64,000 bases of DNA from the NCBI GenBank assembly GCA_000165345.1, contig CM000435.1:288001-352000 (forward strand), written 5' to 3'. The position numbers were made by a program. Position 1 is the first letter of the stretch; the number at the start of each line of letters is the position of its first letter. Positions 45,401 through 48,400 of this stretch are shown in pieces.

Positions 45401-48400
45401 GCAGTAAGAATTAGAGGTGGTGAACAAAACAAACTTGAATCCGAAACACCTGAAGAAACTACTACTACCACCACAACCACAGCTCAGCCAGACTCTACTT
45501 CTGACGAAGATACCACTACCACTACTACTACTACTACCACTACTACTACTACTACTACTACCACCACTACTACTACTGAAGCTCCAGAACCTGTCGAAAC
45601 CAAAGAGGGTGAAGAGACTGACGAAAACACTGACGAAACTACTACCACTACTACTACTGCATCTCCAAAGCCTAAATCTCCATCATATAAAGACAGACTC
45701 CTCTCATTCTTCGGCAGTAATGGCGGCAGTATGTTCGGTCTCGGAAAGAGCAGCACTACTACTACTACTACTACTGCCCCTGTTTCCTCTGAGGATAATA
45801 AGCCAGAAGATTCTGAGGACGAAAAAGAGTCAGAATCTGAGAGTGATTCCTCAAACGAAGGTTCTTCAAATTCGGAGGATTCTGAGGAGAAGACCAGGAA
45901 AACTGAATAAAATCATTAGCAAGCTATTCCACAGATTTGGGATAGATCCCATGGTATTTTATCTTGATTTCTCTCAAATCTGGCTGGTGAAATTTTTGTA
46001 TTTATAGTCTGTTTTTCTGTGAGGTTACAGCCCCTGCTAATTTTTAATTTCATTTATTTATCCGGTTTTTAACAAGTGTCGTAACATCTCCCCCTGAAGG
46101 TTAAGTATTTGTTCTTTTATAATGGTTTTTAGTTGCTGTTGTAGACTGAATTTTTGTTTTGTGGTCATCCGTCTTTAATCATCTGAATGTTTGTGTATAG
46201 TGTGCTGTTGCGTTTATAGGCCAATTTTTTCTTCAAATTAACCTTGAATCTATGATTCATCCTGTCTTTATTCTCAAAATCTCTCTTTTATTCATTTTGT
46301 TTTACTGCCTTTCTATTCTACCTGTTTTTCCTAACTATCATTTCTCCGATACTATTTCATTCATTTAACACCGGTACCATATGTGTACATTTCCCGCCTA
46401 AACCCTCAACCTGTAAATTACATGTAAATAATGCATTTGCACTAAAATAGTAAAGAATATAATTGCTTATTGCTATTAAAGAGAGTGATCGAATTTGGGG
46501 ATAAAATTAGTTTTAATTATAGAAGCATTGATATTGTCTAAATTTAAATACAAAATTATATTAAAGTAAAAGAATGGCATGGCTCGTATGAAAAAAGTGA
46601 GGGATTCCAAAGGAATTAAAGATATGGTTAAAAAAAAGATATAGAATAAAAGAGGGATAAAAGAGATCCATTTCTCTTATTTTAAGAAGTTTTGTGATTT
46701 TAAATAAAGTTTTTGATATGCTGAGATTTTTCTTGAATTTTGTAATTACATTCTTGTCATTAAGCTTTATTATTAATCAAGCTTATTGCATTAGAGTTGA
46801 ACCAAGAGTGACTAGTCTTTTAAATACTCCAATAAATGAAAACATCAGTGAGAGTCAATCTTGTGTGTTACAAACATTGAAAGAGTTAGTATCATCTAAT
46901 GGAAGAATTCCACCCAAAATTACTAAAAAAAGAATTCAACAAGCTGTACTTACTTGCAGGAAGAAGTTAGCTGCATGTGAATATCCAACCATAGCAGAAG
47001 AAACAATATTTATAACTTTAGGCCAATATGGACATCTATCTCAAATAGATACAGTTAAAGCTTTAAGTTTTATTAATGAAATTCAAAAAGGAATAACAAG
47101 TACTGTTGGATCTTATACACGTATGTATAAGTTAAGTCAAAACAATAATTTCTGTAAGCTATATGATGACTTTATCTTATCGGCTTATCCAAAAGAGTAT
47201 TATGTTTCATTTCTTCCAGAAGGTGGAGAAAGATGTCAGGAATTACTTAATAGATTAAAACAAAATGCATTCTATTCGTATTGGGGACAAGGAGGAATTG
47301 TAGCAGACCAAGCTCAACCAATTGTTGATGATAAGGTTTCAAATGACCCAATTAAAACCAAGGATATGGTTATAAATAATATTTTTGAAAATCCTCCAAA
47401 CAAAGAAACTCAAATAGAGGAATTTTCTAAGCCTGAAAGTGAAACCAATAATAAAACTGATTATAATAATGAAAATGAATATGAAAATGTTATTCATACC
47501 AAACAAGAAATCGACCATTTTGAACAAGAAATTGTGGAAGATTCCGGATGTTGTTCTTGTTGTTCTTGTTCATCTAAAAGGACAAAAACCAAGAAAGGAG
47601 AGAATAGTCAACCTCCAAAATTGGTTGACAGTTCTATGACTGAGGAAGAGTTAGAGTTGATTCGACTTGAACAAGAACTTGAGAAGGAGAATTCTGGTTG
47701 TTGTTCTTGTTCTAGTTCCAATAAAAAAAAGAAAGAAAAGAAACAAGTTAATGGGAATGAAATGTCAAATGATATTCTCCAAGATGGAATTATTAATAAT
47801 GAATTGAAAATGCACGAAGATAATAAAAATGAAGAAGACAATTCTTGTTGTGCCTCTTGTAGCTCAAAGAAGGAGAAAAAAAGCAAAACAAAAAATAAAG
47901 AAAAGGAAGTACAGAATGGTGAGACACAAAGAATGGATGAACAAACTCCCAAAACACTCGTTGAGACTTCTATGACTGAGGAAGAGTTAGAATTGATTCG
48001 ACTTGAACAAGAACTTGAGAAGGAGAATTCTGGTTGCTGTTCTTGTTCTAGTTCCAATAAAAAAAAGAGTAAAAATGAGAAAAAAGATAAAAAACAGAAA
48101 AAGGGTAAAGATGAACAGGACAAAAAGGAAGAAAAGTTTGATCAACTACTAGAAGAGCAACAGGAGGGTGAGGAACCAATTGAGGGAAACAAAAAAAGTA
48201 AAAAAGATAAAAAAGCCAAAAAAGATAAAAAGGATAAAAAAAGCAAAAAGAGTAAGAAAGATGAAAATGGAGTCCTAGTCAATTCTTTGCCTGAAGATAA
48301 AATGGAAGGTAAGAAATCAAGTTGTTGTTCAAGCTCTTGTAGTAGTAGCAGTGATAAAGCATCTGATGAAGAGTTAAAGGAGTTAGCTGAGTTGGAGAAG

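Follow-up and report, generated by a model that had tools for sequence, protein, structure and literature searches.

The window analysed here comprises 64,000 nucleotides of Cryptosporidium parvum chromosome 7 (GenBank assembly GCA_000165345.1, contig CM000435.1, positions 288,001 to 352,000 of the forward strand). The open reading frame at 45347-45910 of the window is Gp20 (cgd7_1280), a gene already described and given this name by Haserick et al. 2017 in PLoS One (PMC5549699). The two published Gp20 peptides, (87)EGEETDENTDETTTTTTTASPKPK(110) and (135)SSTTTTTTTAPVSSEDNKPEDSEDEK(160), agree exactly with the translation of this frame in both sequence and residue numbering. The gene lies between cgd7_1270 (4157 aa) and cgd7_1290 (579 aa), and the flanking proteins are exact matches to EAK90595.1 and EAK90186.1. 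The gene order around Gp20 is unchanged in the BGF, 43IA8, HLJ and C. hominis assemblies, and the coding sequence is identical in the C. parvum IOWA-BGF and 43IA8 assemblies. The features of the locus are given below.

45347..45910, + strand: complete coding sequence of Gp20 (187 aa and stop), from the open reading frame and its translation
45347..45403, + strand: predicted signal peptide, aa 1-19, MRFYLFFFALLVFFVATNA, with the top Kyte-Doolittle windows at residues 1-20
45458..45481, + strand: Thr block 1 (T8), ACT3 ACC2 ACA ACC ACA
45512..45577, + strand: Thr block 2 (T22 array), ACC ACT ACC (ACT)5 ACC (ACT)7 ACC ACC (ACT)4
45521..45535, + strand: (ACT)5 sub-run of the T22 array, one unit shorter in IId-HLJ, in the DRR729220 Logan contigs and in two more samples
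45539..45559, + strand: (ACT)7, the longest perfect stretch of the T22 array, from codon reading
45638..45658, + strand: Thr block 3 (T7), ACT2 ACC ACT4, inside the glycopeptide aa 87-110
45677..45715, + strand: SPSYKDRLLSFFG, aa 111-123, the sole motif outside the repeats that is conserved, aligning with PSLKDRFLALFG (C. canis) and PSLKDRLLSLFG (C. felis)
45755..45775, + strand: Thr block 4 (T7), a perfect (ACT)7, inside the glycopeptide aa 135-160
45776..45907, + strand: acidic, hydrophilic C-terminal tail rich in Ser, Glu and Asp, from hydropathy

Only in the Thr frame does the product begin with a hydrophobic signal, and this frame fits the published tryptic peptides. The open reading frames in other frames, 45417-46007 (+ strand, Leu-rich) and 45484-45756 (- strand, Val-rich), were set aside as side effects of the repeated codons.

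The coding ACT/ACC array was found where the first-pass annotation had placed it and greatly exceeds what chance would give: (ACY)22 has one match in the window (45512-45577) and none in 100 dinucleotide-preserving shuffles. TRF assigned 45511-45577 a period of 3, 22.3 copies and a score of 99, making it the top-scoring trinucleotide array of the window. The annotated T22 tract was likewise correct, being composed of 22 uninterrupted Thr codons (17 ACT and 5 ACC), and it is the longest single-amino-acid run among the window ORFs of at least 100 aa. The count of about 32 near-perfect ACT/ACC codons was too high; the interval 45497-45592 holds 32 in-frame codons, of which 23 are Thr, that is the 22-codon run and a lone ACT at 45497, with S, D, E and D upstream of the run and E, A, P, E and P downstream. 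As for the (ACT)8-9 runs said to lie nearby, three other Thr blocks are indeed close, but they are a T8 of mixed codons and two T7, only one of them a perfect (ACT)7. Block 1 has 8 codons in every C. parvum and C. hominis allele with synonymous differences only, block 3 is shrunk to T-A-T or T-T-P in C. hominis, and the position of block 4 is occupied by T8 in C. hominis. The sequence on either side of the array reads CAGCCAGACTCTACTTCTGACGAAGAT ... (G/A)AAGCTCCAGAA, and the arrays span 63-96 bp.

The predicted Gp20 protein has a mass of 20.2 kDa and a pI of 4.2, lacks Cys and Trp, and has Ser or Thr at 75 of its 187 residues (40%). The reading of the locus as a secreted Thr-rich mucin-like protein is in accordance with the published description of Gp20 as a small acidic secreted protein of ~20 kDa with a predicted signal peptide and four domains of consecutive Thr, which is made in oocysts (PMC5549699). 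The only hydrophobic segment is N-terminal; the cleavage position of the signal peptide given above is a predicted one. Orthologues from C. hominis, C. canis and C. felis also carry the V/L-R-I-R-G motif that follows it. Mean hydropathy over the final 25 residues is -2.36, and there is neither a transmembrane segment nor a GPI-type hydrophobic end; C. canis and C. felis have a C-terminal tail enlarged to E/K-rich or GEKGE-type repeats. The AF2 single-sequence model was of low confidence (mean pLDDT 59.9, pTM 0.34), with helices at residues 2-23 and a short one at 114-122. Gp20 probably has no folded domain, low AF2 confidence being expected of a disordered protein.

Mass spectrometry has revealed dense O-linked HexNAc on two of the four Thr runs, blocks 3 and 4, the peptide aa 87-110 carrying 6-8 HexNAc and the peptide aa 135-160 carrying 8 (PMC5549699). 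Glycosylation of T8 and T22 was not seen by this method (PMC5549699). Haserick et al. are silent on the T22 block because the long tryptic peptide that contains it, aa 30-86, was undetected, and they do not treat the DNA repeat structure of Gp20 or its variation between isolates (PMC5549699). The T22 array encodes the largest, still unobserved, putative O-glycosylation block of Gp20. Just four C. parvum proteins, Gp20 among them, have yielded evidence of O-GalNAc by mass spectrometry. The window also contains an ORF at 54433-56232 with the ppGalNAc-T domain set (Glycos_transf_2, Glyco_transf_7C, Ricin_B_lectin), and the parasite therefore encodes a candidate polypeptide GalNAc-transferase for mucin-type proteins.

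No family above threshold was obtained in the Pfam scan of Gp20; a match to New_glue at 20.3 bits against a cut-off of 31 was compositional and was rejected. Protein searches for homologues, run with full-length Gp20 and with a version with shortened Thr runs, gave no match. In an exhaustive HMMER scan the only matches were compositional ones to unrelated Thr-rich proteins, and Gp20 did not match even itself, so close relatives seem to be missing from the libraries and orphan status was not concluded. An exact scan of the metagenome collection with a conserved 30-mer upstream of the array gave 0 matches, and literature searches on chromosome 7 VNTR markers and under the identifiers Chro.70153 and CPATCC_0007010 (the latter guessed) returned nothing.

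The length of the array was compared between isolates, as the first-pass annotation had proposed. Few independent lineages were covered: the C. parvum sample consists of two complete alleles, the four IOWA assemblies counting as one lineage, and two partial ones; the C. hominis sample consists of three human lineages and one monkey lineage. T22 was present in the IOWA lineage, for which independent assemblies are concordant, and T21 in C. parvum IId-HLJ, where one ACT is lost with no other change in the coding sequence. This loss of a single unit as the sole difference is the signature of slippage. Over 9.76 kb, HLJ differs from the window at five places, three of them repeat-unit indels. In human C. 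hominis of the gp60 families Ia, Ib and Ie the coding sequence is identical, with a Ser/Thr block of 24 codons (3 Ser). Monkey C. hominis IbA12G3 has a block of 32 codons (2 Ser) together with 18 substitutions relative to human C. hominis, mostly outside the array, and the interspersion of ACT and ACC differs between the 24- and 32-codon alleles. The expected length polymorphism was therefore observed within both species (22 versus 21 codons, 24 versus 32 codons), while counts were identical across the three human C. hominis families. All 21 to 32 codons of the block encode Thr or Ser in each of the four alleles despite many third-position changes, and the reading frame is kept in every length difference of the array. 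The syntenic orthologues of C. canis and C. felis carry only T5+T8 and TTTSTTTTT. An intergenic (TA)22 repeat, 3 kb away, was far more variable, with one unit more within the IOWA lineage and ten fewer in HLJ.

In Logan contigs only the first sub-run was readable, as the contigs break off within the array or do not reach the gene; this sub-run with its flanking ACC fits one 31-mer, assuming that the Logan k is 31. The state (ACT)4, as in HLJ, was found in DRR729220 and two further samples, and (ACT)5 in ERR14760746. In the C. tyzzeri assembly a gap of 397 N covers the array. The repeat disrupts short-read assemblies, and published "losses" of cgd7_1280 in other species hence need caution. In a survey of 101 C. 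parvum genomes, other mucins were named as indel hot spots or as highly polymorphic, but Gp20 was not (PMC9317183), and it is also not listed as indel-dense or highly polymorphic in the comparison of C. hominis 30976 with TU502. Since short-read studies call indels poorly in such arrays, absence from these lists is weak evidence. The genomes available point to a small number of alleles in each species, not to a diversity like that of gp60, and to a secondary typing marker at best.

Gp20 is a local divergence hotspot and the most divergent feature of the 9.8 kb compared. Between C. parvum and C. hominis, substitutions amount to 10.1% in Gp20 against 1.7-4.4% in the flanks, and the dN of Gp20 is 4-14 times as high as in the neighbouring genes. 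Between human (Ia, Ib, Ie) and monkey (IbA12G3) C. hominis the values are 3.2% and 0.1-0.6% (binomial P ~5e-14); 18 of the 34 substitutions of the 9.8 kb fall in the 567-bp Gp20 gene, 12 of these 18 being non-synonymous, in addition to the 8 extra codons of the Ser/Thr block. The dN/dS ratio is 0.93 at codons that are not Ser/Thr in both species and 0.4-0.6 overall (0.51). The dS of Gp20 is 0.19 compared with 0.06-0.09 in the neighbours, and beyond relaxed constraint this rise could stem from alignment uncertainty in low-complexity sequence or from old allelic lineages. The divergence peak over Gp20 between human and monkey C. hominis was not found in the searchable open-access literature. It is conceivable, though doubtful, that Gp20 is a so far unrecognised determinant of host interaction under lineage-specific diversifying pressure. 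If host adaptation or immune selection were at work, Gp20 would be a new marker of host-adapted lineages and a candidate variable antigen.

The standard subtyping locus gp60/GP40-GP15 (cgd6_1080), to which the array had been likened, shares with Gp20 a signal peptide and a homopolymeric tract of hydroxy-amino acids encoded by trinucleotides. The poly-Ser peptide of gp60 carries 15-20 HexNAc (O-GalNAc) and its repeat number varies between isolates, in likeness to Gp20. This part of the comparison stands, namely an O-glycosylated homopolymer tract derived from a trinucleotide array. The tract of gp60, however, is Ser (TCA/TCG/TCT) whereas that of Gp20 is Thr (ACT/ACC), and gp60 undergoes furin-like cleavage into GP40 and GP15 and has a GPI anchor, while Gp20 has no R-x-K/R-R site and ends in a hydrophilic C-terminus. 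The Ia, Ib and Ie families differ in gp60 and are identical in the Gp20 coding sequence. In the Pfam scan of Gp20, no homology between the two was detected. The resemblance of Gp20 to gp60 is functional only.

The array codes for the longest of the poly-Thr blocks of Gp20, four in number, and very likely varies by slippage under a constraint on composition, in a moderately variable secreted mucin-like glycoprotein. The signal peptide would take Gp20 into the secretory pathway, where parasite polypeptide GalNAc-transferases may decorate T22 as well and give a stiff, extended glycan brush. The array would behave as an imperfect microsatellite in which replication slippage changes the number of ACT units without shifting the frame. 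Pure runs would be interrupted by synonymous T/C transitions (ACT to ACC) and so kept to at most 7 units, and the rate of slippage would be low or moderate as a result. Selection may act on composition, preserving the Ser/Thr blocks, the acidic character, one short motif and the signal peptide, with the remainder in near-neutral drift, and such a regime would produce a local divergence hotspot without the hypervariability of gp60. The earlier designation of the array as a slippage hotspot is borne out in so far as one ACT is lost in IId-HLJ; with pure runs of at most 7 units, hypervariability is unsupported.

The array was also weighed as a gp60-like hypervariable coding microsatellite, in which repeat changes discriminate isolates and drive antigenic variation of a surface mucin. 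The variation in array length within both species, the occurrence of both sub-run states in field read sets and the leading position of Gp20 in divergence over the 9.8 kb, human versus monkey C. hominis included, would agree with it, and the gp60, cgd6_40/MSC6-7 and cgd1_470 mucins are established polymorphic markers. Such hypervariability is nevertheless quite unlikely, and the claim was not upheld: one allele is common to three gp60 families of human C. hominis, the IIa (IOWA) and IId (HLJ) alleles of C. parvum are one unit apart, ACC codons limit the pure runs to 7 units, and the overall dN/dS does not exceed 1. Gp20 is moreover missing from the indel-dense and polymorphic lists of both species cited above, and its immunogenicity is stated as not known by Haserick et al. 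(PMC5549699).

The length differences might instead be artefacts of assembly or polishing over a repeat number fixed in each species, an explanation that is very improbable. Assemblers do fail here, as the C. tyzzeri gap and the Logan contigs ending within the array illustrate, and HLJ is a PacBio assembly of whole-genome-amplified DNA that was then polished; but the (ACT)4 state of HLJ is reproduced in k-mer contigs of DRR729220 and two further samples, and the independent IOWA assemblies agree. All length differences are moreover in frame, and the longer monkey C. hominis allele is accompanied by its 18 substitutions, mostly outside the array. That T22 is a neutral slippage filler without a role of its own, any function residing in the shorter runs or the conserved motif, is unlikely. 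The restriction to Thr and Ser codons across 21-32 codons in four alleles argues against a filler, as do the frame that is always preserved, the shared position of the largest block in C. parvum and C. hominis, and the near saturation of the shorter Gp20 Thr runs with HexNAc (PMC5549699). The short Thr runs of the C. canis and C. felis orthologues, the loss of block 3 in C. hominis, the nearly neutral residues other than Ser/Thr and the glycosylation of T22 not having been observed are on the side of the filler.

Other mucins of the parasite were compared with Gp20. Muc25/MSC6-7 (cgd6_40) and CpMuc4/5 (cgd2_430-450) are, like Gp20, small Ser/Thr-rich glycoproteins with a signal peptide and low-complexity regions that vary between isolates. 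They are documented as highly polymorphic and used for typing, whereas no typing use is reported for Gp20; Muc25 occurs in small granules and is exported to host microvilli, while no localisation or function of Gp20 is reported. The large micronemal mucin gp900 (cgd7_4020), also on chromosome 7, has long Thr runs and O-HexNAc as in Gp20. It is very large, with a transmembrane helix, and is a hot spot of indel density, in contrast to the small, soluble and unlisted Gp20 (PMC9317183). The Thr-run peptide of gp900 carries only 3 HexNAc (PMC5549699).

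The repeat gene is cgd7_1280, an already known object that was named Gp20 by Haserick et al. 2017 (PMC5549699). Exact look-ups of the flanking open reading frames placed the window on C. parvum chromosome 7, from cgd7_1150 to past cgd7_1300, with matches including proteins of Iowa II, IOWA-ATCC, IOWA-BGF and 43IA8. Its neighbours are cgd7_1270 (4157 aa) on one side and cgd7_1290 (579 aa) on the other, and its nucleotide sequence is unchanged in IOWA-BGF (GCA_035232765.1) and 43IA8 (GCA_031892065.1). The published tryptic glycopeptides (87)EGEETDENTDETTTTTTTASPKPK(110) and (135)SSTTTTTTTAPVSSEDNKPEDSEDEK(160) equal the window protein in sequence and numbering (PMC5549699). 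That study reported expression in oocysts and O-HexNAc on these two Thr blocks, with 6-8 HexNAc on residues 87-110 and 8 on residues 135-160, so their Thr runs are nearly saturated. The T8 and T22 runs share one long tryptic peptide (residues 30-86, 57 aa by our count and 55 aa in the paper) that went undetected there; glycosylation of T22 is therefore something we only infer. The computed properties, namely 20.2 kDa, pI 4.2, 75 Ser/Thr and 37 Asp/Glu among 187 residues, no Cys, a hydrophobic segment confined to the N-terminal 20 residues and a strongly hydrophilic C-terminus, are consistent with the published description. The predicted signal peptide, the gene identity and the reported O-HexNAc together bear out the first-pass annotation of a secreted poly-Thr mucin. 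No Pfam family scored above threshold for Gp20, and the single-sequence AF2 model gave no confident fold (mean pLDDT 59.9), with helices only at the signal peptide and a short one at 114-122.

The window is AT-rich (GC 31%) with long open reading frames lacking introns. The Thr frame of Gp20 contains four consecutive-Thr runs, and two short motifs are considered below:
45347-45910, + strand: Gp20 open reading frame, 187 aa (translation)
45404-45421: motif (V/L)RIRG, directly after the signal peptide
45458-45481, + strand: T8, codons ACT3 ACC2 ACA ACC ACA
45512-45577, + strand: T22, codons ACC ACT ACC (ACT)5 ACC (ACT)7 ACC ACC (ACT)4
45638-45658, + strand: T7, codons ACT2 ACC ACT4
45677-45715: motif PS(Y/L)K(D/E)(R/K)(L/F)L(S/A)(L/F)F
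45755-45775, + strand: T7, perfect (ACT)7

The earlier figure of about 32 ACT/ACC codons was too high, as Thr codons are 23 of the 32 in-frame codons of 45497-45592, and no pure run of 8-9 ACT units was found among the neighbouring Thr blocks. The pattern (ACY)22 had a single match in the window, whereas 100 dinucleotide-preserving shuffles gave none. T22 is also the best-scoring trinucleotide array of the window by TRF and the longest single-residue run among window reading frames of at least 100 aa; the array is not due to chance. T7 and T6 runs also occur in cgd7_1250 (27017-27037 and 27068-27085), annotated in some assemblies as "putative integral membrane protein", and a Glu/Lys-rich coding tandem repeat of about 66 bp and about 12 copies lies at the left window end (411-1214).

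The locus was taken from other assemblies through the neighbour cgd7_1290 and its cluster members, and revealed the following alleles:
C. parvum IOWA lineage (window, BGF, 43IA8 and two further contigs): T22, identical CDS
C. parvum IIdA20G1-HLJ, China (PMC12092579): T21
C. hominis UdeA01, TU502, GCA_001593465.1 and GCA_001593475.1: 24 codons, TTTSTS-T12-S-T5, identical 188-aa CDS
Monkey C. hominis IbA12G3 "CHM" (PMC11685829): 32 codons, TTTSTS-T26

Across the 564-nt CDS, the only change in the HLJ allele relative to the window is that the (ACT)5 sub-run at 45521 is one ACT shorter. GCA_001593465.1 and GCA_001593475.1 are presumably TU502_2012 and UKH1. The four human C. hominis assemblies cover gp60 families Ie, Ia and Ib (PMC4637869). 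The monkey-derived allele intersperses ACT and ACC differently and carries 18 substitutions, of which 12 are non-synonymous. Units are gained or lost in frame, and every array codon is Thr or Ser in all alleles. The first sub-run was readable in Logan k-mer contigs: DRR729220 and two further samples have (ACT)4, and ERR14760746 has (ACT)5. The recurrence of (ACT)4 indicates that the HLJ-type allele is no assembly artefact. This allele series seems to be new to the searchable literature.

The proposal of a length-polymorphic locus thus stands, with T22 against T21 in C. parvum and 24 against 32 codons in C. hominis. On the material examined, neither the term hypervariable nor an antigenically variable reading found support; one CDS spans the human Ia, Ib and Ie families, and IIa and IId lie one unit apart. 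The identical repeat count that the annotation had set against its own proposal holds for the families of human C. hominis, whereas counts differ between C. parvum IIa and IId and between human and monkey C. hominis. Only five differences separate HLJ from the window across 9.76 kb: the missing ACT unit at 45521, a lost AAG codon at 47867 in cgd7_1290, an intergenic (TA)22 at 48782-48825 shorter by ten TA units, and two SNPs. This (TA)22, between cgd7_1290 and cgd7_1300, is one unit longer in IOWA-BGF and 43IA8 and varies more than any other site of the region compared. From these differences, repeats change fastest here and the ACT array is slow among them. Among 101 C. parvum genomes, cgd3_720, cgd5_1210 and cgd7_4020 were named as indel-dense regions and cgd1_470, cgd6_40 and cgd6_1080 as highly polymorphic mucins, cgd7_1280 being in neither list (PMC9317183); the comparison of C. 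hominis 30976 with TU502 named no chromosome 7 locus (PMC4407392). The published non-listing of cgd7_1280 carries little weight as negative evidence, since arrays of this kind are poorly resolved by short-read pipelines. The neighbour cgd7_1290 (46718-48457) encodes a signal-peptide protein with CCSCSS and Lys/Glu-rich repeats, in which a Pfam domain was not found; it measures 579 aa in IOWA and in monkey C. hominis, 578 in HLJ, 586 in human C. hominis and 501 in C. tyzzeri. On the other side, 1 kb from Gp20, cgd7_1270 (31876-44349, - strand) is, at 12,474 bp, exactly as long as CPATCC_0007000 (chr 7: 313,585-326,058), the chromosome 7 marker with 5 alleles of a 2025 SNP-based C. parvum MLST (PMC12446620).

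Local divergence peaks sharply over the Gp20 CDS. Between C. parvum and C. hominis its substitutions reach 10.1% against 1.7-4.4% in flanking genes and spacers (dN 0.10 against 0.007-0.025, dS 0.19 against 0.06-0.09). Between human and monkey C. hominis the values are 3.2% and 0.1-0.6%, with 18 of the 34 substitutions of 9.8 kb falling within the 567-bp CDS. The binomial P was about 2e-14 and about 5e-14, respectively. The peak between human- and monkey-derived C. hominis seems to be new to the searchable literature. For C. parvum and C. hominis, dN/dS was 0.51 overall and 0.93 once codons encoding Ser/Thr in both species were excluded; diversifying selection may also act but is not demonstrated. 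On the simplest reading, composition is constrained (hydroxy-amino-acid blocks, acidity, signal peptide and one short motif) and the remainder of Gp20 would evolve nearly neutrally.

Syntenic orthologues were found in C. canis (193 aa, T5 and T8; L012 3640-4221) and C. felis (216 aa, TTTSTTTTT; L013 3693-4343). Both retain the signal peptide, closely followed by R-I-R-G, together with a PS(L/Y)KDRLLSLFG-like motif, and their acidic tails are enlarged into other repeats. Outside the repeats, conservation across these two species, C. parvum and C. hominis is confined to the two short motifs. As the C. canis and C. felis runs are short, the long array is a feature of the parvum/hominis clade. The repeat region defeats assemblers: Logan contigs (L014, L017, position 1) terminate within the array, and C. 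tyzzeri GCA_007210665.1 has a 397-N gap across the 5' half of the gene (L009 2657-3054). According to Xu et al. 2019, chipmunk genotype I has lost cgd7_1280, and C. ubiquitum and C. baileyi lack it (PMC6532270 Table S1). These cases may be artefacts or overlooked orthologues and deserve caution, since the locus yields assembly gaps and orthologues of such low complexity are easy to miss.

Functionally, the array resembles the gp60 poly-Ser tract and the gp900 poly-Thr domains, although Gp20 is outside both families, has Thr and not Ser, and is without a furin-type site, GPI signal or transmembrane segment. On established knowledge of mucin-type O-glycosylation and microsatellites, Gp20 would enter the secretory pathway by way of its signal peptide, and ppGalNAc-transferases there would load its Thr arrays with GalNAc. 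O-glycosylation was inferred by Haserick et al. to make Thr-rich regions rigid and extended (PMC5549699). DNA slippage would alter the number of ACT units, and ACC interruptions, which keep any pure run from exceeding 7 units, would damp its rate. A gene with GT2, Glyco_transf_7C and ricin-B domains lies 8.5 kb downstream of Gp20 (ORF 54433-56232, + strand). The annotated GalNAc-transferase models of 642 and 631 aa begin upstream of this ORF, which points to a small intron. The whole gene (about 54220-56232, + strand) carries the polypeptide GalNAc-transferase domain set Glycos_transf_2, Glyco_transf_7C and Ricin_B_lectin, and Gp20 belongs to the likely substrate class of this candidate enzyme. 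Immediately 3' of the ORF, a purine-rich 64-bp tandem repeat of 3.4 copies occupies 56257-56517.
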